A stretch of 47,645 bases of DNA from Eremomyces bilateralis CBS 781.70. Taxonomy: Eukaryota. A model generated the notes under the pieces. That model saw only the letters and a program-made list of their open reading frames with translations, had not been told where the DNA came from and ran no database searches. Positions 2,481-44,561 of the stretch are shown here, piece by piece. Location: the NCBI GenBank assembly GCA_010015585.1, contig ML975161.1. The stretch is one strand, 5' to 3'. Each line of letters opens with the position of its first letter. Within the stretch, counting starts at the first letter, position 1. The translations under genes were made by a program, and so were the position numbers.

Positions 2481-4678
2481 ATGAAGTCTGAATTTAAAAC
2501 TAACAAGATACAGGTCCAAACGATGCCTCGATTGCCCGGTCTCGTGCAAGAATCAAAAATAATTACAGACATTCGCGATTCTTTAATTGTCCATACATTT
2601 CCCGATACTAACGAAGCGGGCAGACGATCGTCTCGAAAAGAATGCTGGAAGCCGGAAAAACGCCTTGGGCGTGGACGATCTGGGCAGGTACAACTACAAA
2701 GATGCACTACGGGAGGCACACAACAGGATGCTCTACGAGCAGTAAAGATCATCGAAAAGGGATCGAATCAGAATTTCAATAGGGAGTTAGAAACGATAGC
2801 AAAATTCTCTAACTATCGAGTAAGTCGCATCTAGAGAGACCTAGACGCTAGCTAACTAACCTTTATATTAACTTAGTATGAACAGTGGTTTGTAAAATCA
2901 TTTGGATGGTATGAAGATGCGAACTCGATATTCATTACAATGGAATATTGCCGTTACGGCGATCTTCATTCCTACCTTAAGAAGCAACGTCGTCTACCTG
3001 TTCTAGAAGTCCAGCAATTGATATGTCAAGTACTTGAAGGTCTTGATCAAATGCACCAAAATGATTTCACTCATGGGGATCTAAATCCATCAGTAAGCGC
3101 GATCTAGTCAGCAAGCGACGGATCATTTTCTAACATTAGTAGAATATTCTCATTAAGTTGATGCCACCAGAGGAGAGTTGGTGGATTGTGCTTACCGATT
3201 TTGCTATCAGCAAACGAGCGAACGAAGATAATAGCCCTACAACAGCGATTAAAGGCACAGTAGGATTTATAGCGCCGGAATTGCTAGGCTTTCCGAGTCT
3301 TCCTAGACCTAAAGAAACCTCCGGCTTTAGAGCAGCAGATTTATGGGCTCTTGGTGAGATTGCCTTTATAATGCTTACTAGCGAAGCAACGTTCCCATCC
3401 CAGTGGCACCTAGGGCGATACTGTCAAGGACAGCAGAGATTCCCGTCCGATCGACTTTCGCCATTCGCTGGAGACGATGGCATAGATTTCATCAGCAGCC
3501 TCATGGAGATACATCCAGAGAATCGAATAGATACCACCCAATGCCTCGAACATAGCTGGATAAAGCCGCAGCGTGTAAATCTGGAAGAAGAGATTTCTGG
3601 ACTGGGCTTAGGACAAGATAGCTCAAGTTACTCGGCTAGCTTGACAAACGTATCACATCCGGACTGTATTCTAGAAACAGTTCAACGAAGCCCGGCAAAG
3701 TCGTCAGACTTGTACCAAAGAGGTTCAAGGCAGCCCCAACTTGAGCGGATTTGCAGCAATCCATCAACCTCTAGGACTGGCAAGGAATCGTTATTCCTAC
3801 CGGGAGCGGCACCGAAAACGCTCGAGGGGCATACGGGTTACGTCGACGCCATTGCCTTTTCGCCGGATGGCAAGATACTGGCGTCGGCATCGAGGGACCA
3901 TACCGTCAGGCTATGGGACGTCCCGTCGGGAGCGGCGCTAGAGACGCTCGAGTGCCATACAAATGACGTCTACGCCGTGGCCTTCTCCCTAGACGGTAAG
4001 AGGCTGGCGTCGGCATCGGGTGACCATACCGTCAGGCTATGGGACGGCCAGTCGGGAGCGGCACTAAAGATGCTCGGGGGCCATACATATTTCGTCTACG
4101 CCGTGGCCTTCTCGCCGGACGGCAAGGTACTGGCGTCGGCATCAGGGGACGATACTGTCAGACTGTGGAACGGCCAGTGGGGAGCAGCGCTAAAGACGCT
4201 TGCGGGCCATTCAAATGCCGTCGACGCCGTGGTCTTCTCGCCGGACGGTAAGACGCTGGCATCGGCATCGTGGGACCATAGCGTCAGGCTGTGGAACGGC
4301 CAGTCAGGAGCGGCGCTAAAGACGCTCACCGGACATACAAATTTCGTCTACGCCGTGGCCTTCTCGCCGGACGGCAAGACGCTGGCGTCGGCATCGGGGG
4401 ACTACACCGTCAGGCTGTGGGACGCCCGGTCGGGAGCGGCGCTAAAGACGCTTGCGGGCCATTCAAATGCCGTCAACGCCGTGGTCTTCTCGCCGGACGG
4501 CAAGACGCTGGCGTCGGCATCGGGTGACCATACCGTTAGGCTATGGGACGGCCGGTCGGGAGCGGCGCTAAAGACGCTTAAGAGACATACAAATGATGTC
4601 TACGCCGTAGCCTTCTCGCCGGAGGGCAAGACGCTCGCGTCGGCATCGTGGGATAAAACCGTCAGGCTTTGGACATAA
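2481..4678 (+). CDS. Ser/Thr kinase-like domain fused to a 7-repeat WD40 propeller (3 exons)
   Basis: Introns 2820-2876 and 3093-3142 (GTAAG..CTAAC..AG) join the ORFs in frame. Kinase motifs: LGRGRSGQV, RAVKII, RELETIAKFS, MEYC..GDL, HGDLNPSN, DFA, GTVGFIAPE, DLWALG. The C-terminus has 7 x 42-aa GH..WD repeats. Start could be ATG 2481 or 2523. Confidence 0.88.
3802..4675 (+). repeat. Seven tandem 126-bp WD40-coding repeats with high nucleotide identity
   Basis: Unit GAALKTLxGHxxxVxAVAFSPDGKTLASASxDxTVRLW. DNA motifs such as ttctcgccggacggcaag and ggcgtcggcatcg recur every 126 bp. The array is GC-richer than the kinase part. Confidence 0.95.
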
Positions 4679-7214: not shown

Positions 7215-8951
7215 ATGGAGCAGCTGCTGAGCCGGCGGAGCGCACTACATTGTCCCGTCTGTAAAAAGCTCTACACCAACGCTACCAACTGTAAGAGATT
7301 ACTGAGGAAGCCACTTGACCCGGGCTAACACCATGAAGCACGATCCAAGAGCAAACACATCTCATACTGCCGCAAGAAACACAAGTCAGGCCCTCTACCT
7401 AGAAAGAAAGCGTGTGATAAATGTGTGCAGTCTAAGGTCCGCTGCAGCTTAGATCCTGGAGGTTGCTCTCGATGCGCTTCAAGAGGCGTCTCATGCACTT
7501 ATCAAGGCACCTTGAACGGCCCAAATAGTGCCAACTTGGCCTTTGAAGCAAATGGTGGTAGCCGTATGCAAACGGCCTCCTTGCAGCTCACCGACGTAAC
7601 CCCGTTGAATTTCCCCCCCCAGTCTTCGAATGACTTGAGGCCCGGTCTCGACAGTCCTTCTGTCGAGGTGGAAGAGACATACAGAGACATCAATTTTTCT
7701 CTTACTAATTTTACTTCGAAGAACGACATATTCACACCTGCGTGGCCATACGTGCCTGACTTAGCGACTGACTCTGGTGAGGGTTATCCTCTCGGATCTC
7801 ATGTCGACGCCTCTATCATCAGCGGCGAGTTACAGTCTGCGTCCAATGTTATAGCCATCTCAGAGCAGTTGCTTCAGCCATCATCTTCGATTCCAGCATC
7901 ACTAGCCTATCGAGATCCTTCCTCATTGTTTGAACGGCGCAAGTTCTCAGAGCCAGAGTTTGAGCTTACTGGCGACCTTGCCCTGCACATCCTTCATTCC
8001 TACCCATATATGATAGCCAACCAGGATTCTGTTCCTCCTTTCATCCACCCGAAATATCAGTATTTGTCTGAAAATGACACGACAAGTCCAAGTCCTCTTA
8101 AAGCTGCCCTTAATCTAGCGAAGATGCTGCTGCAAGGCCGACGGATGAATAAGAGCTTGATTTGGGGGCTGGTTCGGATCGAACAGGAGCGACTTCTCAT
8201 CGAGGTATGTACTGAACCCCTCAATCCGTGTTAGCAATTACTGGAAACCAGGTTATTAACCAGAATCATCGCAAATAGCACTCCAGCTTTAGCAAGTGGG
8301 AGGTTCTGGAGGCGTTGCAATCTCTCGTCGTCTATATCCTCCTGAGGATTATTGAGGGACGCCATGACTATACCAACTTTGATACCCAGCTTCTAGCTTC
8401 AATTAATGTGAGCAGACATGGTCCAGGCCCCAAAGAACGCCCAGCGTACTCACGAAGAGAAATGTGAAGGCAATATGCAAGCATATCACCACAAACTATG
8501 GCAGCCTCATCGGCTTTGATGAAATGTCAGGTCGAATGATCCCGTGGAAGGACTGGGTATTCTTCGAATCGCGCCGTCGGTAAGTGTTTGTGCCCAACGA
8601 ACATCTCAGAGTTAGGCGGACCCAGCTGACACCATTTCATAAAGAACTTCAACTACCGTACTCATCATAAACAGCATTATTCACGCACAAGTCACCACAT
8701 CGCCTCAAGCCATGCCCGAGTATTCCTGCTCGCCTGCACCGTCCCCTATGACGCTATGGCGTGCAGAGAACGAATTGGACTGGGTAATCGACTATGCAGA
8801 GTACCTACATAAAAATTCCAGCCATGGTATGCTCAGAAACGGCGACCTTGTGGAGTTGAAGGAAGCAGCCGGACAGCAGCACGACAGGTGGTATGCTTAT
8901 GCCGATTCGTTTGGCCTTCTGGTTACGTTGGTCGCAAACATGACCAATTAA
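7215..8951 (+). CDS. C2H2-like + Zn(II)2Cys6 fungal transcription factor (multi-exon)
   Basis: CPVCKKLY..KHISYC followed by RKKACDKCVQSKVRCSLDPGGCSRCASRGVSCTY after intron 7291-7338. Middle-region motifs PPFIHP, WKDWVFFESRRR and PAPSPMTLWRA. Further GT-AG introns between ~8205 and 8645. Confidence 0.88.
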
Positions 8952-9382
8952 AGAGGCAATTTTGCTGTGTAATGCAAAAAGTCCGATTGCTTGTCATAGT
9001 TATAGAACAGTTGGACTAGAGTGCGGAGACAGTGCGATTGAAGATATTATCATTGCGATACGCGCTGACCAAACATGGGTACTTGCGAAACCAAGGCTAA
9101 TTTGCAGAGAGAAAGGGAATCGATCAGTAATATCGGGATATGGCGATTGGATTGTCCCGAGATATGTTAATTTTGCCTTTCGGGGTTTGCAGCAAATGTC
9201 TTCGGAGATGTCCTACGGAGCATATGGGTATGATTTGTCTCGCGGGACTAGTAGATCGAGAGTGGCTTCACCAAAAGAAAAAGTATTTAAAAGGCAGCGT
9301 TAGTCAATAACTATGTCTACCAATACTCTACTTGTTCAGCTACATCAGTGGTATTCAACAAACTATTCAACCTCTCGTAGAC

Positions 9383-10398
9383 ATGTCCACGTCTTCGTTT
9401 TTCCCGTCTGTTACCAAACTATCGCATAACGAATCATACCCCGCCATATCACCATCACGTCCTGAGCTCTTAGTGAAAGGCAAGGCTGTTGTCATCACCG
9501 GCGGTGGCAGTGGCATCGGTGCTAGTATCGCAAAAGCCTTTGCAGCAGGCGGAAGCACTAAGATAGCTATTATCGGCCGGACTGAGACGAAACTTCTCGC
9601 GACCAAACATGCCACCGAAGAGGAATACCAAGATACCGAAGTTCTGGCCGTGTCTGCCGATATCACCAACGCGAAACAGGTCGATGACGCCTTCCTTAAG
9701 ATCAGCCAAACCTTTGGCAAGATCGATGTCTTGGTCTGTAACTCTGCGTCCATGCCAATTCCTCACCCTATACTCAGCCCAGATTTCGATGTGCAGGACT
9801 GGTGGTCCACATTCAACACCAATATTCTAGGATCACTATACACAGTTAAAGGATTTGCCAGATATGCAGCAGAAGGAGCACATATTCTCAACATCTCAAC
9901 TTGTGTTGGCCACATGCCGCCGCTGGAAGCTGGTGTGTCTGCCTATGCTGCAAGTAAGGCCGGTGCAGCAAAGTTATTCGACTACATAACGTTCGAAAAT
10001 CCCGAGCTACACATTGTCAATGTTCACCCCGGCCTTGTTGATACCGACCTGAGTCGCAAGAGCGGCCATGGTGGCATGGATCACAGTTAGTCACCTCATA
10101 TCTCCTTACTACTTTGCTCGCTCCATTTCTCTCACTCTATTAAACTAGTCAAGCATTTTGGGATACTATAGAAGTCGAAACTGATAGCGCAGCAGTTGAT
10201 TTGTCTGGCCACTTCTGCTTATGGCTGGTTAGCTCCGAAGCCGACTTTCTCAGGGGCAAGTTCGTATGGGTGAACTGGGACGTAGATGAATTGAAGGCCA
10301 GAAAAGATGAAATTCTGAGCACCGATCTCCTGGATACGAAGCTCGGTGGAGTTTCCTTCGTAGGCTGGGATGGGTCCCAGAAGCTGGGAGAGCTCTGA
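9383..10398 (+). CDS. Short-chain dehydrogenase/reductase (SDR)
   Basis: TGGGSGIG NAD(P)-binding motif, YAASK catalytic motif, VHPG. Intron 10086-10195 joins the last exon (FLRGKFVWVNWDVDEL). Confidence 0.93.
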
Positions 10399-11049
10399 GC
10401 GCACTTGTTATTGTTTGATCCAAAGAACTGGGTAGCCTCTCAGCTATGGCTGTTCTGGCATAGATGGCACCTAATCAAGTGTATCTTCTAATTGAAGCCG
10501 TGCTGCCGCATTATTGTTGCGCCTTCTTTCACTAATATTGAGCAGCTATGGCTCTAAGCTTCGTCCCATCGTTATTAGTGCATGCAAGGCGTTTTTATAG
10601 ACGGTTACAGACATACTGTGAACATTAGGTTATAATTATCTCGCGAGAAATTCGTCAACTACTTATTTAGCCTAGATTCTTATCTACCCTACTATCTTAA
10701 GGCTGTAATATGATCTGTCTTATATTAGTAAAAGTCCATGGAAAAGTGAAGTGGTCGTTACTAGAAATGAGACTGAACCGTTAGGACTGATAGATTATTG
10801 TTCCGTTCTACAATTCTAGCTAGCCTCGAGGCACTAACTACTTTAATTCATATATCATGACTATAAGAACTTCCAATGAACCTGTACTATAAGTGGTAAA
10901 TGCTGAGACGGTTTGCCTACAATGCATGCACAGTGCTTAAGAGGCCGACGCCAACCTAATTACGTAACCATAATTAACTTCCAGGGGAACAGGCCAAGGG
11001 CCTGGAACCATAACAAATGCCAGTGCTTTTAGCCAAACCGCACTCTGCG

Positions 11050-12111
11050 TCAAAGCGCGATACTCTGGTTGCCATGGACAGTTTTCGTCCCTACTTGCTC
11101 TGCGATCTTGCTGTCCTGGTTGTTCCATGTGTTGGATACACCACTTGCTGCCTTGATCATGTCGTCCACCGTGCCTGCCTTCGCTACATCAGCCGGCACT
11201 ATCACCGACAGTAGCTCCTTCGCACACGCTGCTGCCGCTCCCGCCGCGTATGGCTGCCACTTCTTGTTCTTATGCGAATCGGCGTAGTCACAGATACCTC
11301 GGATGACAAGACATGGAAAGCTGTTCATCAGGCCTGCCGCCTCCATCTCAAAACAGAGCACTCCGCCAAATTCCTTACTCACAGTATCCCTCTCCGCAGC
11401 ATTCTTAATGACCTGATTGCCAGATGCAATTGTACCGTAGTAAATCACAAGGTCCTCGTTCGATCGTGGCTGTCGATCCACCTTCTTGTCTTGGCTGCAT
11501 GACTTGCATGTCGGCCCTTCCTCGTGATTGTACGCCGCTTCGAATAGGACGTCCTGTCCGGCGGCCTCGCGTGTGAACTCTGTAAGCCGGCGAAACTTGG
11601 AGACGTGTTCCGAGAGCTTAGTCTTCCGGCGGATTTGGTTGGCTCGCAGTCTGTTAACAGCGCCTAGTAGGAATACCGGTGGGGAATTGAGAAATCCCGT
11701 CCGTTGAAACCCGCTCGGAGTCGACTTCCCAAAGTCGTACTGTATCACTCCGCCGTAGCCTTGATGCGGCTGACTGATAACCACATCTCCCAGCCGGATG
11801 TCCGCTTCAGCACTTGGGACGCCGCCCCCGATGCCGACCATCAGGCCAAACCGTATCGACCTAAATGTTGCTCTCAACTGCGTCGCTACTGCCGCGGCGG
11901 GGTTGTTCCCTATTAGGCCTGCTGGGAGGCAGACGATAACAATATTATGTTCCCCTATGCGCCCGAGCGAGTACAGATTGTTGTCGTGCTCGTCCTGCTC
12001 AAGGTCTTCGTGCTCTTCGTCCAGCATTTCCTGTGCGGCAGCCAGTTCGACCGGCAGCGCGCACACCCATCCTACAGTGTATTCCTCGCGTTGAAGACGA
12101 CGGCACGCCAT
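11050..12111 (-). CDS. Stand-alone PNP_UDP (nucleoside phosphorylase-fold) protein of the fungal NLR-effector type, with a C-terminal N/Q/G tail
   Basis: Intact 353-aa ORF with YTVGWVCALPVELAAA, LMVGIGGGVP, DIRLGDVV, GTIASGN, FEMEAAG and IRGICDYADSHKNKKWQPYAA. Ends VSNTWNNQDSKIAEQVGTKTVHGNQSIAL with no NACHT or NB-ARC attached. Confidence 0.95.
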   Translation of the reverse strand: MACRRLQREEYTVGWVCALPVELAAAQEMLDEEHEDLEQDEHDNNLYSLGRIGEHNIVIVCLPAGLIGNNPAAAVATQLRATFRSIRFGLMVGIGGGVPSAEADIRLGDVVISQPHQGYGGVIQYDFGKSTPSGFQRTGFLNSPPVFLLGAVNRLRANQIRRKTKLSEHVSKFRRLTEFTREAAGQDVLFEAAYNHEEGPTCKSCSQDKKVDRQPRSNEDLVIYYGTIASGNQVIKNAAERDTVSKEFGGVLCFEMEAAGLMNSFPCLVIRGICDYADSHKNKKWQPYAAGAAAACAKELLSVIVPADVAKAGTVDDMIKAASGVSNTWNNQDSKIAEQVGTKTVHGNQSIAL

Positions 12112-12414
12112 TCAGATGGTCGCTGCGGTGCGGTGGGATAGTGGGAGGGAGAAAGCCGCAAGGCTAGAAAGTATACAGGAGCCGAGGAGAGTCGAAGAGG
12201 GTTGCGACTAATACAGGTTGAACACGAGACCAGCAGTAGCGACCAGTCATATATATATCGCCTGCATTCCCCGTCGCCAACATTGTCGCCTGCCTAGCCT
12301 CCCACTCCCTACTATGTACTCCCTAGGCGCTTGCAGCTGGCAGCGGTAGGGATCGTTGTAAAGTAAGAAGTGGGGACTACCAGTCGGGCGCTGTCATTAG
12401 CTATTAATAGAGTG

Positions 12415-12665
12415 CACATCGTACGACCCCGCCTTGCGCTTCTGCGGTTTACCAACTAATACCACATCGCCGAGCCCTTTTATCTACCTCCTCACTTAGA
12501 ATGCCTTCTCCGATGTCTACTATCAAGCCAAACCGGATTGACATGAATGCTGACTTCATCGGACGGCGACTATCGCCGCTGAGCTGGTCTCAGTAAGGCC
12601 CTCAGGTAGACAGGCGATGACGACGTTATGTTGGTTGACATGTCCGAGCGCGTAAATATATGGGA
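12415..12665 (-). pseudogene. Degenerate fragment of a second PNP_UDP gene
   Basis: YALGHVNQHNVVIACLPEGLTETSSAAIVA / frameshift / MKSAFMSIRFGLIVDIGEGILSEEVD..LGDVV parallels YSLGRIGEHNIVIVCLPAG..FRSIRFGLMVGIGGGVPSAEADIRLGDVV of the neighbouring gene. Confidence 0.8.
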
Positions 12666-13054
12666 TTGAATGGGCTGCGAGAAAGCCTGGGATATCTCGA
12701 GGCTTCCACACTTTTAAACTTAGAATAGCTGGCTTGGGGAAACAGGAGGGTCGAACGGCATGGGACCTTACAACGAATGATACGTATTGCATTACCATGC
12801 TTAAGCTGTGTGCTGACTTTGCTCTTTGAATTGCTGCGTCGTCAAGAAATTCAGAATAGATAGAGAAACATAGAAAAGCTAAAGAAGGTGACGATTCATC
12901 ACGTGCCATCTCCTGGTTGAGGTTGGCAGATGACCTGGCCTTGCGGACTGCATTTGGCGCCGATAATGGTCTGTCCTTAAACCTCAGTCAATCTCTCAAG
13001 ACACACAGCTCGTAGCTATGATTTTGTTGTGATACGTGGCCTATCTTCCTAGCG

Positions 13055-16000
13055 ATGTACGCTTCCCCAGATCACCAGCCGGTCAGGTTCACCAATGAAG
13101 GAGGAGGGGTTGGAGTCCAGGCCGGTCAGAACATCGTGTATAGGGACTTCAACGTGCAGTAAGTTCGGTCTACTAGTTATCTCTCTTTGAGCTTACTGAC
13201 ACGGCGCGATTATCTATGGCAGGACTACACACGATCATAATCCGCTAGACTCCCTCCCTTACGCGCCCAACGCTGCTTTCAACGCACTAGAGAAAGGAGA
13301 CGACCCTCTCTGCATCCGTGGCACTCGAGTCGACGTCCTTAACGATATCAGGAAATGGATCGATGGAGAAGACAAGCGGCATATCTTCTGGCTGAGTGGC
13401 TGGGCAGGCACCGGAAAGTCCACAATAGCACGGACAGTTGCACGGAAATACTATGGCAAAAGTAGACTAGTCGCAAGCTACTTCTTCTCAAAAGGTGGCG
13501 GCGACACTGGCAATGCGACAAAGTTCGTTGGTACAATCGCAAGGCAACTGGCGGGCAAATTACCCGAGTTCGAGAGACTGCTCCGGAAAGCCCTGTCGAA
13601 GGACAAAGACATTGTCCATCGCGTCCTAAAAGATCAATGGCAGGAACTCATTATTACACCGCTAGCGCAACTTCCGGTCGACTCGCTCCCGTCGCCACTA
13701 ATAGTGGTTGATGCGCTAGACGAGTGCGATACTGAGAGCAGTATTAGACAAGTGCTCCAGCTTCTGGCCGACACAAGAAATCAAAACCGACAACTGCTTC
13801 GGATTTTGATTACAAGCAGACCTGAAGTACCGATCCGGGATGAATTCTCGCGATTCCTACCGGGTGAACACCAACTCATATTACAGGATATATCGAAGTT
13901 TATCGTCGACCAAGATATTTCGATTTTCCTAAAGCATAACCTCGCGCAAATTAGCCCAGAAGACGAGATAGTCGCGCAGCTTGTCCGAAAAGCTGCGGGC
14001 CTATTTATCTGGGCTGCAACCGCCTGTCGATTCATCTGCGAAGGGTCATCCCCTGAGAAAAGACTCCGCATAATTCTCGGAAGCACCGGCTCTACTATTA
14101 CCTCGAACGATCATGTTGATGGGATCCATGTCACTTTGTTACAAAACATCATCAGAAGCCTAATTTGGAAGGCAAGTAGCCTTTGGTTTTGGACTGCAAT
14201 TTTCTGTGGCTTCGTTCGCGAAGGACTAATTGTTAAGCAATGGCTACAAACACTTGTTATGAGCAATACCACGCCAGAAGATCATCTCGACGCGATCTAC
14301 TTGACTGTTCTCAACAGCTCTCTCCACTCAAGGTTTTCTCCACAGGACATCACCGACTTCCATGGCACGGTAAGAGACGTGCTGGGAAGCATGGTCACCC
14401 TTTTCTCCTTCCTTTCGGTCAAATCATTGAGTATCTTACTCTTGAAACCGGAGAAAGACCTTACCTGGACGATGAAAGATCTTCATGCTATTCTAGATTT
14501 TCCAAAGGACAATGCTTCAGCTCTTCGTCTCCATCATCCGTCGTTCCGGGACTTTCTTCTTAACAGAGAAAGGTGTCGCGACTCGTACTTCTTGGTAGAC
14601 GAGAAACAGGCACATCAGATGCTAGCTAACAATTGTATACGGCTTTTGTCGACATATCTGAAGCAGGATGTCTGCAAAGTGAACTCTCCAGGTATGCTTA
14701 CGGCCGGGGTTGAGAGAAATCAAGTAGACCAGTGTCTTCCGCCAGAGGTCCAGTATGCATGCCACTACTGGATCCAACATCTTCAGAAGAGCGGTGCTCA
14801 GCTTCGCGACAATGACAAAGTACACCGTTTCCTACAGGAGCATCTTCTCAACTGGCTGGAAGCGCTAAGCTGGATGCGGAAAGTCTCTGAAGGGATTAAT
14901 GCTATTAATTCTTTACAATCAATTGCTCTGGTACTTATGCCTTATCATTATAGAAATACGTCCGCTAAAATGCTGTTTAGACCAGCGACTGTCCTAGGCT
15001 ATACGCGTTTATCTATGATATAAAGCGATTCGCTCTATATCACAGGTCAGCAATCGAGCAAGCTCCCCTCCAAATATATTACTGTGCACTTGTGTTTNNN
15101 NNNNNNNNNNNNNNNNNNNNNNNNNNNNNNNNNNNNNNNNNNNNNNNNNNNNNNNNNNNNNNNNNNNNNNNNNNNNNNNNNNNNNNNNNNNNNNNNNNNN
15201 NNNNNNNNNNNNNNNNNNNNNNNNNNNNNNNNNNNNNNNNNNNNNNNNNNNNNNNNNNNNNNNNNNNNNNNNNNNNNNNNNNNNNNNNNNNNNNNNNNNN
15301 NNNNNNNNNNNNNNNNNNNNNNNNNNNNNNNNNNNNNNNNNNNNNNNNNNNNNNNNNNNNNNNNNNNNNNNNNNNNNNNNNNNNNNNNNNNNNNNNNNNN
15401 NNNNNNNNNNNNNNNNNNNNNNNNNNNNNNNNNNNNNNNNNNNNNNNNNNNNNNNNNNNNNNNNNNNNNNNNNNNNNNNNNNNNNNNNNNNNNNNNNNNN
15501 NNNNNNNNNNNNNNNNNNNNNNNNNNNNNNNNNNNNNNNNNNNNNNNNNNNNNNNNNNNNNNNNNNNNNNNNNNNNNNNNNNNNNNNNNNNNNNNNNNNN
15601 NNNNNNNNNNNNNNNNNNNNNNNNNNNNNNNNNNNNNNNNNNNNNNNNNNNNNNNNNNNNNNNNNNNNNNNNNNNNNNNNNNNNNNNNNNNNNNNNNNNN
15701 NNNNNNNNNNNNNNNNNNNNNNNNNNNNNNNNNNNNNNNNNNNNNNNNNNNNNNNNNNNNNNNNNNNNNNNNNNNNNNNNNNNNNNNNNNNNNNNNNNNN
15801 NNNNNNNNNNNNNNNNNNNNNNNNNNNNNNNNNNNNNNNNNNNNNNNNNNNNNNNNNNNNNNNNNNNNNNNNNNNNNNNNNNNNNNNNNNNNNNNNNNNN
15901 NNNNNNNNNNNNNNNNNNNNNNNNNNNNNNNNNNNNNNNNNNNNNNNNNNNNNNNNNNNNNNCTCTCTTTTTCTGACGATAGCACTTCTCTGCGAACAAA

Positions 16001-16226
16001 CAGGGGGTCACTTCCTATTTCATTATCTCTCCCTGGCGATACACCTACTCTCCAACCACAAGGTCCACCTCTTATCTTTGTTAACGACGAATGGGTTTGT
16101 CACAATACCGAGCGTATTCTTTGGCTTCCTCATGAATATCGATTAGCCAAAGTTGCGGTCTATGGAGGCGTTGTTGCTCTCGGCTGCAGATCTGGAAGAG
16201 TTACAATCATGGTACTCGCTTTCTAA
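13055..16226 (+). CDS. HET-E-like NLR: short N-terminal motif + NACHT + (probably WD40) repeat domain; repeat region lies in the assembly gap
   Basis: Exon 1 13055-13158, introns 13159-13222 and 14931-14980. Motifs: LPYAPNAAFN..CIRGTRVDVL, Walker A FWLSGWAGTGKSTIARTVA, Walker B IVVDALDEC, ITSRPE, GLFIWA, LRLHHPSFRDFL, YACHYWIQHL, WLEALS, APLQIYYCALVF. The post-gap tail ILWLPHEYR..VALGCRSGRV is typical of NACHT-WD proteins. Confidence 0.9.
15098..15962. other. Assembly gap (N run) inside the NLR repeat domain
   Basis: 865 N between the ALVF helix and the C-terminal LWLP tail. Confidence 0.99.
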
Positions 16227-22135: not shown

Positions 22136-23604
22136 CCTCACCGGACTGCTCAAGTGTGACCAATGCTTAAAAACCTTTCCTACGAAGGGGAAATTCAGGT
22201 TCGAAAATATCGCCATTATCTCGAGAGGCACTCGCTAATTGCTTCCCAGCCGCCATTATAATAAACATACAAAACCCCATCGGTGCAACGACTGTGGGAG
22301 AGGATTTGGACTCAATGGTGATCTTAAGCGGCATGCCAAAATACATCAACTCGTCAACTTTCCCTTCCACTGCAATGTTTCCGGATGCCGGTTCAAAGGG
22401 GCTACGAGAAAGGATAATCTGCGAAGACACATTCGTGCCCGCCATAGACTTAATGAGTTCCACGGGGAAAAGATACAGCAAGAGGACATCGAACCACTTT
22501 GCAACCAGGCACAATTGGAGGTTAAGGAACTGATCGGCGACTCTACTGTGCCCGTAGCCGTGCAATCCGGGAACGATATAGTACTGCGCTCGCTTATCGA
22601 TCTCGGGTTCGACCTTACGACAAGATTCGATCACGGCAGAACGGCACTTCACATTGCCGCAGTCAAAGGCAGTGATGTTGCCGTACGAATACTCCTTAAT
22701 GCCCGGGCCAACACCGAAGCTAGAGACGATCTAGACAGAACCGCACTGCATGAAGCAGCATATCAAGGACATCATAACGTTGTGGATCTACTTCTGCAGG
22801 CAGGAGCAGGGATTCATCATAGGGATCACAGAGAGGACACCGCGCTCCATCTCTCTGCTGCCAGCGGTCATAGTCTTGTTACAAGGTCTCTTCTGCAGAA
22901 GGGAGCTAAACCAGATGCACAGTCACGGAGAGGAGAAACGGCACTATACCGAGCGATCCAGAATGGACACGAAGATGTTTCCAATCTACTGCTAGATCAT
23001 GGGGCATCCCCCACAATTGTGTCAAATGCGTCGCGGGCGGCACTGTACTTTGCGTGCAAGGCCGGAAGCGAGAAATTACTTGAACGGCTGCTTCGAGAAA
23101 CGCCGGATGGACCAAGCATGGCTCGCAAACAGAGGTTCCTCGTTCGTGCAGTCAGGCATGGCAATGAAGATGCGACAAGGGTGCTTCTCAAAGTAGGGGC
23201 GAATGTTAATTTGAAAGGACATCAAACCGGCTGTACTCCGCTCGAGTGGGCGGCGATGAGAGGAAATGAATCCATGATGCGACTGCTTCTTGAAAATGGA
23301 CCAACCGTCAAAGGCCTCACCGGCGCACTTCAATGGGCCGTAGTACGGGGTAATGAGAAGGTGATACGTCCACTTCTCGAAAGCGGGGCAGACGTGAACG
23401 AGGCGGACAAATGGGGCAGGACAGCGCTTCATACCGCTTCTAATCGCGGCCATACAGACATCATCCGTTTACTTCTTACGAGCGGGGCTGACGCAAACCG
23501 AGCTGACAACGGGGGGCCAAACACCGCTCTACCAAGCTTCTAAAGACGGCTATACAGACATTGTCAGTTTACTCCTCGAGAGCGAGGCAGATGTTGTGCG
23601 ATAA
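22136..23604 (+). CDS. Triple C2H2 zinc finger + ankyrin-repeat protein (5' exons uncertain; +1 frameshift in last repeat)
   Basis: LKCDQCLKTF..(intron 22199-22249)..RHYNKH, HRCNDCGRGF..DLKRHAKIH, FHCNVSGC..RKDNLRRHIRARH, then about 10 ANK repeats (GRTALHIAA, RTALHEAA, GETALYRA, GCTPLEWAA). The ORF stops at 23543, while a shifted frame continues QTPLYQASKDGYTDIVSLLLE to 23604. Confidence 0.85.
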
Positions 23605-40185: not shown

Positions 40186-43066
40186 AAAGCCTGACATCTG
40201 GTCAACTCTGGAAAGTCGCACGGAAAGTGGAAGTGCAAGGTGCAAAGTGCAAAGCAAAAAACAATTGTTTGACATGGCGGATATATCAGAAAGTTTGGGT
40301 GGTGCCAGGGTGGAGGGATGGTTTAGGCAAACGGAAATCGGATCACAGGCAGCCGACCCACTTGGAGTGAGACTGGACCTGAGAGGAACCAAGGGAATTG
40401 CATTCTCTCCCCTTGCATTGTTGAGCAAACCAAGGAAAGCATTCGAATGGTTCTAGAAGTCGGGTGGGAAATGGTTCAAGTGTTCATACCCGTAGAACTC
40501 TTGCTGTTCCGTGTTCATAGCAATGTATGTACCAACCGCTTTGACCGGACCCTACTCCCCCAAGTACCGCTGTTGTAGTCGGGATATGAACCACAAATTG
40601 GATGGCTGCAAGTCTGGAGGAGTTGTTTTATATCGTCGGTCGTCTGAGGGAATGTGTAATTCGGATTACAAGCTCGAAGTAAGGTCGAGAGTTTCGAAGG
40701 AAGGTCTGTCGATCGGTCTATGTACTTGAAGCGGTTGTCGCCGTGGAATGCTCTATGGCAAGTATCGGATAGGGAATGGAGTCCAGAGTTGAACAACCCG
40801 CTCATTTGCGAAAATGGCCACGCAATGAACAGAGTAGCGTCTAAAGCAAACTCAGGATCGACTCTGATTGGGACGGAAGTATCAATTAGCACAGCTGAAC
40901 GCCTGAGGGGAACATCGAACACGAGGGCAAAGGAGGTGGTAAAGAGGGACTTGAGACGAGCCAGTCACGAGACTGTCCATCCAGTAGACATCGACGTACC
41001 GAAATAGGCCGCTGAGGCATAGATAGCGAGTCGCTTGGTCGGAGAGACGGTAAAGAAGACATCTTGGAAATTTTCAGGAGCTTAGAAGAGGAGAAGAGGG
41101 CCATGGTGGCATGGACAATTTTTGGGTACAAACATGAAGCCGGGGGGATGCCCGTACTACAGCGGTTCCTGGGACTGGATGGAGAGCCAGTACGGTAAGC
41201 GTTGGGTCTGACTTTACGGGAGTACAGTCAGGTAAGTTAAGTATGTGCGTCACAAACCAGCCTCAGGGATCGGGGGTTTAGTTAACTGAACAAAGTTTGT
41301 AACGTAGATGGATCTCCTAATGTTGGTAGCGTTCAACAATAGCTTGCTGAGGAGTAGGATAAATCAGAGCTCATCTGAACTTCAAGAGATATCCCCAGCC
41401 GTTCCTTCAGCTTGAGAATCAACCGACATTTCCAAGACTTGAAAATAAAGTCTCATCTCTCGAAGTAAGGGCAGCGTATGGTGCAGAAGGAGGAAGGTTG
41501 TATCAAAAGGCGATGGGCACACGACAGGATCCTCCAATCAGGGTGCGGATAGGGGAGAACAATCGTCCAAGCTAAGAAGAAACAAATCGACGCCTTGCTT
41601 CGCATGGCAAGAATCAGCCGGGGGTACCCCTCTATTGGTACAGGAACTACAGGTAGTGTATCAAGCTATTCGAACGGAAATCCAGTTTCGCTGACTGGGC
41701 AGTGGGCACAGATCGGAGATTCATACGGACGCAGGAGACGGGAAAAGATCGCTGCAATCCATGGGTTCCTGGAATTCCCCATCGAACGAGCCCGACGAGC
41801 CAGTGTAAGGCTGGAAGGTCTTGACTTCGACCGGGGGTTAGACACTAAAAGTTCGTATCATCAATCAAGGCCATCAGAATTCAGATGTGGTCATCCGTCA
41901 TGCCTGTCCTTTCTCCTGAAGGCTGAACGCCATTGAGGGCTCTGCATTCCAGAGCTTGCAAGCCATGGTGAACCTGCGATCGGTTGGAAGGTGGCGAATT
42001 TGTGATAGGTTATCTGCTGGTTCTCCCTTCCCATACCCAGAGTGTCCAGCTCGGATGAACCAGAATTGCCTTGATACGGCCCGGAGTTTGTTTGAAGGAT
42101 CCGTAGGGGCTAGATGGAATTGGGAAAGGTGAGGGGTTAGGCGATATAAACGGGCGCTTACCAGCCTATCAACCCCAACCCTTCGGTTTCGCTCTCGGCT
42201 GAGCATCTCGATCTCCTTGGAAGCTGTAACCAGACGCAATTGTCCTTTCCAATAGTCGAGCTCCTTATGAATGCCCCTTTCTATCCAATTCCAGGGCAGA
42301 TATTTCACAGCTGCACGACACCTCAGCAAGCTACCGTAGCAACCAAGCTACCGTAGCAGGATGTCCCACCGTCGGAGCCGGAACAGAGCAAACCGTGGGG
42401 ACGAAACAAATTTCTCTCCATGCCCCTCCGACCTAAGCTGCCAATGACATAGCATGGAACGATCGATTCTCGCCGGCAATTTTGAGGCCGGTTCTCTCCT
42501 GGATCAGAATTCAGACCTTCACATCGGTTGCCCTTCAGGCTTCAGTTGCACTATGTAAATTGCACAAGTTAGGGACGATCGGACGACAGCCGTGTGTCCT
42601 GGATAGATATGGAATCGGCGTCCGCGAAAGCGAGGAGTTCTGCCAAATATCCTTCTCGAACTCCGATGTCCTTCGTCTTCGGCCGCTAAAATAGATGACA
42701 TCCTTCCACCGTTCGCAAACAAGCACCCCGAAGCACGGAGCGAAGAGAATTGTCTGCAGACAGCATGGCTCAAGAGTTAAGACCAGCCAGTAAACTAATA
42801 TTAATATGTCCCGAGCTGTGGATATTTAATACTAGATCTACACTGAGAGCTCGGCTAGGGGCTAATTACTGGACATAAGTAAGCTCACTACCGCCTTATA
42901 CATTATTACTCAGCAGAGATTGGCTTAACCCGGAACTCCGAGTACAAACTTTGTAACTTCGCGATTACAGATCACCCCTTCACTCCTAAAGTCCTAATTA
43001 GGTGCTTAATAGCCAAGACCCTTACTACTTACTCCGAACTCATTAATGTAATCTACTCAAGAAGTC

Positions 43067-44561
43067 ATGGAGAAAATTAGATGCTCTCAATGCGACAAGT
43101 CCTTCAGCCAAAGTACGTAGTCGGCCACACCCTCCGGTCACCAGGATTGACACCAACTGTGCAGCGTCATCCCTTGTTCGACACATTAGAAACAAAAAAT
43201 GCGAGAAAGGCTCAGTCGTCATTCGTCAGAAATCCTGTCAGAAATGCTCGGATTCGAAAACGAAATGCGATTTACGGAGACCAATATGCAGTCGTTGTTC
43301 ACTAAGAAGCCTTACCTGCCAATACCCCAGGTCCGACGATACAAGCTCGAACAGCAACTCGGATTCCCGTGAAGTTGTCTTTTTTGATACCTCCACTAAA
43401 GCCACTCCTCTAGACCAATTTCTGGACAATCCTTCGCTATCTGCCAGTCCCCGAACTTTGACGCAAAGAGCAATAGACAACCACACATCTAATACGTTGT
43501 TTGATATTGTACACGGAACAATAGGCGACTTCGAAGATTTCTGTACCCCTTGGACAATCGGCCATTCAATTCCAGACCCCATTTTCCAGCCGGATCTCTC
43601 ATTGATGCCGTCGATCACGACCAGGCCAGTTCTGGCGACGCACAGCATGCAAACCTTGTTTCGTTGTCTGCGAACATGGCCCCGTATGATAGCTAAGGGC
43701 ATCTTGTCTCCGCCAATTATCCACGATACAGTGACACCAGAACGTCTTATGCCAACGGCTTTGGCCAGATGCTATACCTTGACCAAAATGTGGGATGGAC
43801 AGTCTCCTGGAACAAGCTTCATGGTGCTGGAAGCAGTTAAAAATGAAATTCAAACCCTGGTCGATACAGTAAGGTGGCTCTATGTTTCCATGTCCGATTG
43901 TTCTGACCTGTATTAGTATCAAGCCCTAACGGAAGACAATCTCATTCCAGCCCTCCAAGCCCTCGTAATTTACACCATTATTTTGCTCTTTCCTTCCAAA
44001 TCTCAACGCTCCGTCACATTGCTCCCCGAGTCCCTATTTCGTGATCTCAGGAACGTCGTCTACCACAGCGTCACTACTGGCCTCATCTTACCAGAAGAAT
44101 CCACCCACGAGCGTCCAACCTGGTCGTCCTGGATCCATGTGTCATCCAAACGTCGTGCAATCTTCGCTTTGTATCTTATCCACTGGTCTTACTCGGTTTA
44201 CCATTGCCTGCCGAGCTATGACTGTAAAGATTTGGGCATGATGCCCGCACCAGCGGCGGGGTATCTTTGGCATGCCAGAAACCAGGAGGAATGGGAAAAG
44301 CTCTACTTGAAATGGCTGGTGATGTGGGATGGGAAAGAATATATGCAGTGGGAGTACTTTACCATTCAGTCTGGGGTGGGTCTGGATGGACGAGCCCAGC
44401 TGTGGTTAGAGGACGCGGATGAATTTGGTATCATGTTCATGAGCATTGGTAAGGCAATTTCCTGGATATCATGACGGCTTGCGAACCAAAACTAATGCCG
44501 GTCGGTTGTAGTCAATGCGACTGATAGAGAACCCAGATTTGAAGCCGAGCATCTATCTTAA
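43067..44561 (+). CDS. C2H2-like + Zn(II)2Cys6 transcription factor (4 exons)
   Basis: MEKIRCSQCDKSFSQ|TSSLVRH..RQKSCQKCSDSKTKCDLRRPICSRCSLRSLTCQYP, PPIIH, RPTWSSWIHVSSKRR, MPAPA, DEFGIMFM. Three GT-AG introns. Confidence 0.9.

Follow-up and report, generated by a model that had tools for sequence, protein, structure and literature searches.

By which means does a nucleotide-binding oligomerization domain (NOD)-like receptor (NLR) that carries no effector domain of its own reach an effector? The question is raised by a gene pair of the fungus Eremomyces bilateralis CBS 781.70 (assembly GCA_010015585.1, contig ML975161.1), situated at 11050..16226 of a stretch of 47,645 nt that is called the window in the following. 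A PNP_UDP gene on the minus strand and a NACHT NLR gene on the plus strand lie there head-to-head and are divergent, with a distance of 944 bp from ATG to ATG; this agrees with the starts about 940 bp apart given in a preliminary description of the same DNA. Apart from a short motif that immediately precedes the NOD, the NLR has no N-terminal effector domain, and the PNP ends in a tail beyond its nucleosidase domain.

The two genes probably encode a signalosome of the amyloid-signalling kind known from fungal NLRs. As judged from its sequence, exon 1 of the NLR appears to encode a PP-like motif of roughly 23 residues (core G-V-Q-A-G) belonging to the published family NLR39. The view already taken in the preliminary description, according to which the effector-less NLR signals to the adjacent PNP via a shared terminal motif of amyloid type, is the best-supported reading of the locus, given the conserved motif families on both sides, the recurrent pairing of tail and motif, and the link to NLR39.

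Recurrent pairing of tail-bearing effectors and motif-bearing NLRs

Scanning of metagenome contigs with an alignment of the effector tails yielded four loci, two of which (L002, 1998 bp, and L004, 1265 bp) are too short to include neighbouring genes. In every neighbourhood with flanking sequence (4/4: the window, L001, and L003 twice), the tail-bearing effector stands head-to-head with a motif-bearing NLR; the effector is a PNP in the window and in L001, a HeLo protein in the first pair of L003, and a SIR2 protein in the second. The pairing proposed for the window thus recurs in other genomes, once in L001 and twice in L003, and furthermore in the published NLR39 pair treated below.

In L001, the tail-bearing PNP (9107-10126) faces an NLR with the first exon MNLSQGSPQVSFTNEGGRTGVQASHYEVHGNNIIQ. 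The HeLo protein of L003 (9283-10102, plus strand; PF14479, E 8e-54) has its tail, STWNNYNSKIGEQVETKNVYGNQNTTF, encoded by a small exon at the 3' end, which is preceded by an intron at 9961-10009 with GT..AG borders, and faces an NLR at 8943-7210 (minus strand) that starts with MATPADSKVGITNAGGKVGIQAVNYIAHGTTVVK. The second effector of this contig, a SIR2_2 protein (11081-12335, minus strand; PF13289, E 4e-19), ends in TFHNHNSKIGVGATTMTVNGGQTINL on a predicted last exon (the splice being predicted as well) and faces an NLR that extends from 12708 on the plus strand and starts with MQTPAAPLPAKFTNEGGIVATEAGQLNVQGDYNV. The two effector/NLR pairs of L003 are located about 3 kb apart. Both the SIR2 tail variant and the NLR motif facing it are devoid of the central Q. 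In the literature that we searched, amyloid signalling in fungi was nowhere linked to a SIR2-type effector.

All four NLRs share one gene structure: the motif constitutes a short first exon of its own (13055-13158 in the window, 8664-8560 in L001, 8943-8842 and 12708-12812 in L003), and the phase-2 intron that follows sits at an identical point in each. Small exons of their own also encode the HeLo and SIR2 tails, whereas the PNP tail lacks one. A separate motif exon would ease exon shuffling of the motif.

Motif families on the two sides

Concerning the effector side, the tails were classed in the best 120 of 8000 scored PNP homologues, 117 of which possess a domain-end anchor and were used for classing. 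The tail SNTWNNxxSKI[GA]EQVGTKTVxGNQSI.. is found in nine of the 120, including the database model of the window's own PNP, and a second tail type, GPVFQNYGSVHGKNVLQGQ..., in ten; 76 stop at most 20 residues past the domain, and 22 bear other extensions. Among eight tails on PNP domains 66-84% identical to that of the window, 19 of 42 columns are invariant; the tail is retained although identity between the PNP domains drops to about 70%. The effector-side consensus is WNNxxSKI[GA]EQVGTKTVxGNQ, with the core G-E-Q-V-G in the relatives and with conserved charged positions K, E, and K; in the window PNP, the motif occupies residues 329-351 of 353. A search with the window tail alone returned two proteins only (few shared words) and was replaced by a profile of the 42-column alignment. 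Run against a large protein collection, this profile gave 21 matches, of which 10 have a hit to PF01048 and four (P0288, P0290, P0291, and P0292) one to the HeLo domain PF14479.

The closest PNP homologues (76-84% identity in the aligned part) bear a different conserved tail, GPVFQNYGSVHGKNVLQGQT..G.SNTLNFS, which is probably another amyloid-type motif and is present on P0005, P0008, P0009, P0011, P0014, P0017, P0018, P0031, P0042, and P0044. Tails and domains have therefore been shuffled between lineages. Further tail types occur on P0022 and P0045 (HIGEGAKAHLGDTYHFG), on P0053, and on P0081.

Concerning the NLR side, the motif was found in four of 150 representatives of the NLR relatives (P0139, P0141, P0178, and P0211), and one of these provides the link to the literature. 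Amyloid signalling motifs on the N-termini of fungal NLRs and on the C-termini of neighbouring effectors were described by Wojciechowski et al. (2022, PMC9815663; cited throughout from those portions of the article and its supplement that were consulted). In Table 1 of that study, NLR39 is a motif of 24 residues present in 20 NLRs with 0 motif-bearing neighbours; it is labelled 'PP' for its G-hydrophobic-Q-hydrophobic-G pattern and stands outside the set of motifs whose signalling role is called supported (PMC9815663). In supplement file 2, PSN61266.1 is entered under NLR39 with residues 12-35 (PMC9815663). This protein is P0141, and its residues 12-35 are the motif found here; the N-terminus of the window NLR is 41% identical to P0141 over its length and occupies the same position. 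The only NLR39 pair of supplement file 7 consists of XP_018036993.1 (NLR) and XP_018036994.1 (HeLo) of Paraphaeosphaeria sporulosa (PMC9815663). The latter is P0290 and ends in the same tail, ...TWNNRNSKIGEQVGTKNVYGNQNITV. Within the part of the supplement consulted, both halves of the motif pair are therefore already catalogued, once, with a HeLo effector. PNP or SIR2 partners of NLR39 are absent from the supplements of PMC9815663 that were searched (files 9, 10,.fa, and.hmm lying outside the search), and so are the motif strings, a single unrelated 'KIGEQ' within an alignment excepted. As a fungal motif, 'NLR39' appeared in the literature searched only in PMC9815663 and its preprint.

Similarity between the two sides

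The preliminary description had aligned the two termini of the window without gaps under the consensus [FW]xNxxxx[VI]xxQ[AV]GxxxV[YH]x[DN]xx[VI]. Such an alignment exists; the best gapless segment in BLOSUM62 scores 22 (18 columns, 4 identities). Its register is upheld by the families: hhalign, comparing eight NLR N-termini with 11 effector tails, aligns 27 columns without gaps in the same register (probability 90%, P 1.6e-6, 15% identity). Furthermore, a hidden Markov model (HMM) of seven NLR motifs from which the window was left out finds the tail of the PNP homologue P0065, HFSNQGRVGVQANQYIVHGNNIVG, at E 4e-6; by its sequence, this tail, which is of the NLR-side type although situated on a PNP, bridges both sides. 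Ordinary PNP tails score low with this HMM, yet they are always matched at full length and in register. In the fixed register, the paired segments share 4-8 of 23 positions between the sides, and proline is absent from all 184 motif residues of the eight paired segments.

Identity with the HRAM or sigma motifs was rejected, since no such Pfam model matched P0001, the window tail, or five related motif peptides, the HMMER filters dropping most weak matches; the models HET-s_218-289, NACHT_sigma, and Ses_B are those which we take to represent these motifs. The sole Pfam matches of the motif peptides, Rrp40_N and M-factor at E 0.14 and 0.04, are unrelated and due to chance. A complex prediction with two NLR N-termini and two PNP tails (score 0.01, mark 0.34) is uninformative either way.

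Gene structures and transcript evidence

The sole public run covering the stretch, X1, is available as contigs; its nature is guessed to be RNA, and transcript ends and levels cannot be derived from it. X1 contigs connect position 13158 with 13223 and position 14929 with 14980, across introns that both have GT..AG borders. The NACHT exon therefore follows exon 1 of the NLR directly in these contigs, which show no larger domain spliced on upstream. The 34 residues which the preliminary description had counted before the NACHT-proximal region are thus borne out as a 34-codon exon, and two of the circumstances that it had named as fatal to its proposal, an unused exon 1 or a larger domain spliced on upstream, did not appear. 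An in-frame TGA is situated at 13019-13021, twelve codons 5' of the NLR start codon at 13055. Between 13112 and 13348, one spliced X1 contig carries 8 mismatches to the window in 173 bases and another is identical; X1 therefore contains a second allele or a nearly identical NLR paralogue with the same junction of exons 1 and 2.

The NPHP3_N/NACHT module of exon 2 is recognized by Pfam at E 3e-31 (109 bits against a cut-off of 24.8), the P-loop GWAGTGKST is readable, and the protein thus belongs to the NACHT-type signal transduction ATPases with numerous domains (STAND NTPases); a library search with this exon gave 21455 matches. The repeat region that follows is masked by a run of 864 N. Residues 553-591 and 1245-1328 of P0139 match on either side of this run, with the WD40 region of P0139 between them, and the 86 residues past the run align with P0141 at E 6e-14. 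The masked sensor is taken to consist of WD40 repeats by inference only, because these 86 residues align with the C-terminus of NACHT-WD40 relatives. Codons begin at 14981 before the run and at 15966 after it, i.e., one base off, such that the run is not to scale or hides another intron.

Concerning the PNP, the PF01048 score of 45 bits exceeds the cut-off of 25.1, which places the protein in this superfamily, and the fold is concordant. The domain is folded in an AlphaFold2 model based on 40 homologues (predicted template modelling score 0.80), whereas residues 325-353 have a predicted local distance difference test (pLDDT) value of about 28-30 and no secondary structure; the tail of about 29 residues noticed in the preliminary description is confirmed as these residues. 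The best Foldseek matches of the model are methylthioadenosine/S-adenosylhomocysteine (MTA/SAH) nucleosidases and a futalosine hydrolase, with E down to 6e-14 and target TM-scores of 0.65-0.79 to the MTA/SAH nucleosidases among the chains listed; a sequence search of solved structures led to the same distant family only (best E 4.8e-6).

An X1 contig is colinear with 10500-12192 and contains the PNP open reading frame (ORF) without intron removal, and the tail is therefore part of an unspliced ORF. The homologues begin at the Met equivalent to that of the 353-residue model. The database model of the window PNP, P0003, has 325 residues and starts at Met29 (window 12027-12111); the longer model is to be preferred, because the homologues keep the 28 upstream residues (…YTVGWVCALPVELAAAQE) and the X1 contig spans them. 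This contig, of 2760 bases, extends beyond 10500 toward a convergent short-chain dehydrogenase gene at 9311-10090 (adh_short, E 7.7e-35).

Proposed mechanism and alternatives

By analogy with the NWD2/HET-S, PNT1/HELLP, and PUASM pairs, binding of a ligand to the repeat domain of the NLR would let the NACHT modules oligomerize, and the N-terminal motifs clustered in this way would form a cross-beta nucleus. This nucleus would template the disordered PNP tails, and polymerization of the tails would gather the nucleosidase domains and activate them. The active PNP would probably cleave ATP or dATP, and the depletion of nucleotides would result in growth arrest or cell death. The amyloid fold, the direction of templating, the activation by proximity, and the substrate are all inferred here from these sister systems.

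Several observations weigh against this reading. The likeness of the two window peptides to each other does not exceed chance, as 459 of 3000 shuffles reach the score of 22; the case for a shared motif therefore rests on the relatives, and the weight which the preliminary description had laid on the pairwise alignment was too great. With the HMM of seven NLR motifs, ordinary PNP tails obtain about 1-4 bits, which is the level of decoys and agrees with the 0 neighbours published for NLR39. Similarity is no greater within cognate pairs than between non-cognate ones (rank 22 of 24 permutations for the diagonal sum), and the tail thus acts like a generic module rather than a key fitted to one partner. 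With a threshold as loose as E 10, the Pfam amyloid-motif models still gave no match to the motif peptides. The window NLR motif ends in Y-R-D, whereas six of the seven other aligned N-termini have [HQY]-G-x. In the portion of the source consulted, NLR39 itself is annotated by resemblance of pattern only, with no experiment on its subfamily (PMC9815663). Concerning the enzyme, the window PNP is equally distant from the model of the housekeeping methylthioadenosine nucleosidase (MTAN; 65.1 bits, far under its cut-off of 169) and from the PADLOC model of the 'PN-superfamily' effector of cyclic-oligonucleotide-based antiphage signalling systems (CBASS; E 1.5e-18, 64.6 bits), and ATP as the substrate is a reasoned guess, because both match about equally. 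Finally, the intergenic region harbours a degenerate second PNP_UDP gene. It is 76% and 57% identical to tail-bearing PNPs of the P0026 type and 48% and 43% identical to the intact neighbour; given this greater proximity to other tail-bearing lineages, the effector of the locus may, by sequence, have been replaced, the present PNP being the replacement.

Two of the alternatives accept that the termini matter. That they form a real recognition pair through a contact of non-amyloid type, i.e., by hetero-oligomeric beta-augmentation or as a small ordered complex on the NLR oligomer, is considered unlikely. The two sides do differ systematically (4-8 of 23 identities; 15% in hhalign), cognate-specific similarity is lacking, and the conserved K, E, and K of the tail would self-stack in an in-register homopolymer, all of which would suit such a contact; however, the G-x-Q-x-G core, the length, the absence of proline, and the terminal position are traits of the PP/RHIM type (Loquet and Saupe 2017, PMC5485727, in the parts consulted), the sister PUASM motifs on PNP_UDP proteins form fibrils and prions (PMC9815663), and RHIM itself joins two different kinases (PMC5485727). 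It is quite improbable that the pair is mismatched or decaying, the PNP having taken the place of an earlier partner and the NLR motif having drifted, such that triggering would be weak or the true partner, of the P0065 type, would be encoded elsewhere in the genome. The Y-R-D ending and the mere 4 identities look like drift, the intergenic relic is nearer to other tail-bearing lineages, a tail of the P0065 type fits the NLR motif far better (E 4e-6) than the tail of the neighbour at decoy level, and non-adjacent NLR/effector pairs are reported for some motif families (PMC9815663). The same combination of a poorly similar tail and an NLR39-type motif is, however, present in L001 and in both pairs of L003, so that divergence is the norm of the family and not a sign of decay; in addition, both ORFs are intact and appear in X1 contigs, the NLR in spliced form, and the tail is conserved as strongly as the enzyme domain.

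A chance likeness of unrelated low-complexity termini in neighbouring genes, for which the insignificant pairwise alignment and a composition rich in G, N, Q, S, and T that inflates matches could be adduced, is very improbable, because the pairing recurs: four of four neighbourhoods are paired over three unrelated effector domains even though only 4 of 150 NLR representatives bear the motif, the profiles match in the same register at P 1.6e-6, and an independent pair has been published (XP_018036993.1/XP_018036994.1).

Within the preferred reading of an amyloid-type signalosome, a more specific idea, which we regard as doubtful but worth stating, is that the NLR39/tail family forms an asymmetric, one-way hetero-amyloid in the manner of plug and socket, the tail nucleating only on the template of the NLR side and never alone. 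If this were true, a near-invariant K/E/K tail would have been moved among PNP_UDP, HeLo pore-former, and SIR2-like executioners, and two amyloid-triggered metabolic-suicide effectors would belong to one motif family, SIR2 by probable depletion of NAD+ and PNP by depletion of ATP. It would also explain why only 4-8 of 23 positions are shared and why the partners were missed by scans for motif similarity.

Coordinates and other features of the window

The features of the locus are compiled in Table 1. The intergenic region is presumed to be the shared promoter region of both genes; X1 contigs give no cover over 12194-12963, which is evidence neither of silence nor of a promoter.

Table 1. Features of the PNP_UDP/NLR locus in the window of E. 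bilateralis
Feature	Position	Strand	Description
PNP_UDP effector gene	11050..12111	-	single ORF 12111 to 11053, stop 11050-11052; 353 aa, intron-free
PNP C-terminal tail (29 aa, residues 325-353), effector-side motif TWNNQDSKIAEQVGTKTVHGNQSIAL	11053..11139	-	pLDDT < 50; conserved
PNP_UDP_1 (PF01048) nucleosidase domain, residues 13-300	11212..12075	-	Pfam E 1.2e-11
Divergent intergenic region, 944-bp	12112..13054	.	from the coordinates of the two genes
Degenerate second PNP_UDP gene, residues 46-124	12419..12657	-	one frameshift and one stop; tblastn
NLR exon 1	13055..13158	+	34 codons + 2 bases (104 bases); encodes the N-terminal motif only, MYASPDHQPVRFTNEGGGVGVQAGQNIVYRDFNV
NLR intron 1	13159..13222	+	64 bases, GT..AG, phase 2; GTAAGT ... 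TACTGAC (branch site) ... CAG
NLR exon 2	13223..14929	+	NPHP3_N/NACHT NTPase module and winged-helix region (HTH_TANC1)
NLR intron 2	14930..14979	+	GT..AG; X1 contig with 14929 joined to 14980
NLR 3' part	14980..16226	+	N-run 15099-15962; last 86 aa to stop 16224-16226

Elsewhere in the window, an ORF at 3143-4678 encodes 511 residues with seven WD40 repeats; it aligns to the WD40 part of the NLR relatives only, and no NACHT domain is seen upstream of it. The ORF at 22239-23543 contains ankyrin repeats and a weak C2H2 zinc-finger match below the cut-off (E 9e-4), and those at 7329-8234 and 43047-43916 are Zn(2)-Cys(6) transcription-factor frames.

Comparison with known systems

The principle, the association with PNP_UDP, and the NLR-side motif are all already published, and no new category is therefore established by this locus. 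In particular, the novelty implied in the preliminary description does not stand, as PNP_UDP effectors with C-terminal amyloid motifs beside motif-bearing NLRs are on record for PUASM, PP, sigma, and HRAM3-like motifs, to which the rare PF01048_015 is to be added as a motif linked to PNP_UDP (PMC9815663). New are, as modest additions, the definition of the effector-side half of the NLR39 family and its occurrence with effectors of three kinds, one of them SIR2-like. The window adds a clean, transcript-supported pair of an NLR and a nucleosidase coupled by motifs of amyloid type. With the tail on PNP, HeLo, and SIR2-like effectors beside NLR39-type NLRs, the motif would be a portable activation handle, and enzymatic, nucleotide-depleting effectors would be wired to fungal NLRs as pore-formers are. 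Searches for partner motifs by similarity undercount such systems; owing to the great dissimilarity of the two sides, the published scan barely detected the effector half of NLR39.

The window pair is organized much like the NLR39 pair of P. sporulosa, with which it shares the effector tail and the adjacency and appears to share the NLR motif and the NACHT-WD architecture of the NLR; the effector is a HeLo protein there and a PNP_UDP protein here. The PUASM pair EQB50682.1/EQB50683.1 of Colletotrichum gloeosporioides equally combines a C-terminal motif on PNP_UDP with an N-terminal motif on an adjacent NACHT(-WD40) NLR. The PUASM pattern is FxGxGxQxxGxGxF, and thioflavin T, atomic force microscopy, and Podospora prion assays were positive, i.e., these motifs form fibrils and prions (PMC9815663). 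Its endings are G-N-D in the PNP and A-R-D in the NLR, as compared with G-N-Q and Y-R-D in the window. The pattern fits neither window peptide, and PUASM is a different motif family. Identity with PF01048_015 is rejected weakly and from positions without sequences: two pairs, out of 15 occurrences in supplement file 6, place that motif at residues 369-396 of longer proteins (PMC9815663), whereas it lies at 329-351 of 353 here.

PP motifs, which comprise about 20 residues centred on Q and have the GxQxG segment in common with RHIM (PMC5485727), are described as the pseudo-palindrome NxGxQxGxN (PMC5485727, PMC9815663), and motifs of the PP cluster also occur on PNP_UDP proteins (rows PF01048_013, PMC9815663). 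PNT1/HELLP/SBP of Chaetomium globosum and Podospora anserina, and likewise the RHIM of RIP1/RIP3, resemble the window family in the distribution between NLR N-terminus and effector C-terminus and in the Q-centred GxQxG (PMC5485727). The window NLR, with G-V-G-V-Q-A-G-Q-N, contains the PP core and the right-hand N, the left N being replaced by G, whereas in the window tail, A-E-Q-V-G-T-K, the first G and both N are missing (G-E-Q-V-G in the relatives). The window family differs from PP: the flanking N of NxGxQxGxN are only partly there, the [FW]xN block upstream and the V-[HY]-G-N block downstream are peculiar to the window subfamily, and the two sides are far less alike than would be expected of a pseudo-palindromic PP pair.

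The same paradigm, an effector-less NLR that templates the C-terminal motif of an adjacent cell-death effector, is realized with the HRAM motif in NWD2/HET-S of P. anserina, and the HeLo effectors bearing the window-type tail constitute a further link to that system. In contrast to NWD2/HET-S, the window motif is single and not a double repeat, the effector is enzymatic, and there is no match to HET-s_218-289 at E 10.

Concerning the enzyme, immune ATP nucleosidases (Cap17, DtcC of Detocs, and the NLR nucleosidase of Hyaloscypha variabilis) contain PF01048 in an NLR-linked immune context, as does the window. For the PNP domain of the H. variabilis NLR, ATP-nucleosidase activity in vitro and toxicity to E. 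coli were demonstrated (Rousset et al., bioRxiv 10.1101/2023.01.24.525353, in the portion consulted). This domain is fused to its NLR, whereas the window PNP is a separate protein with a tail.

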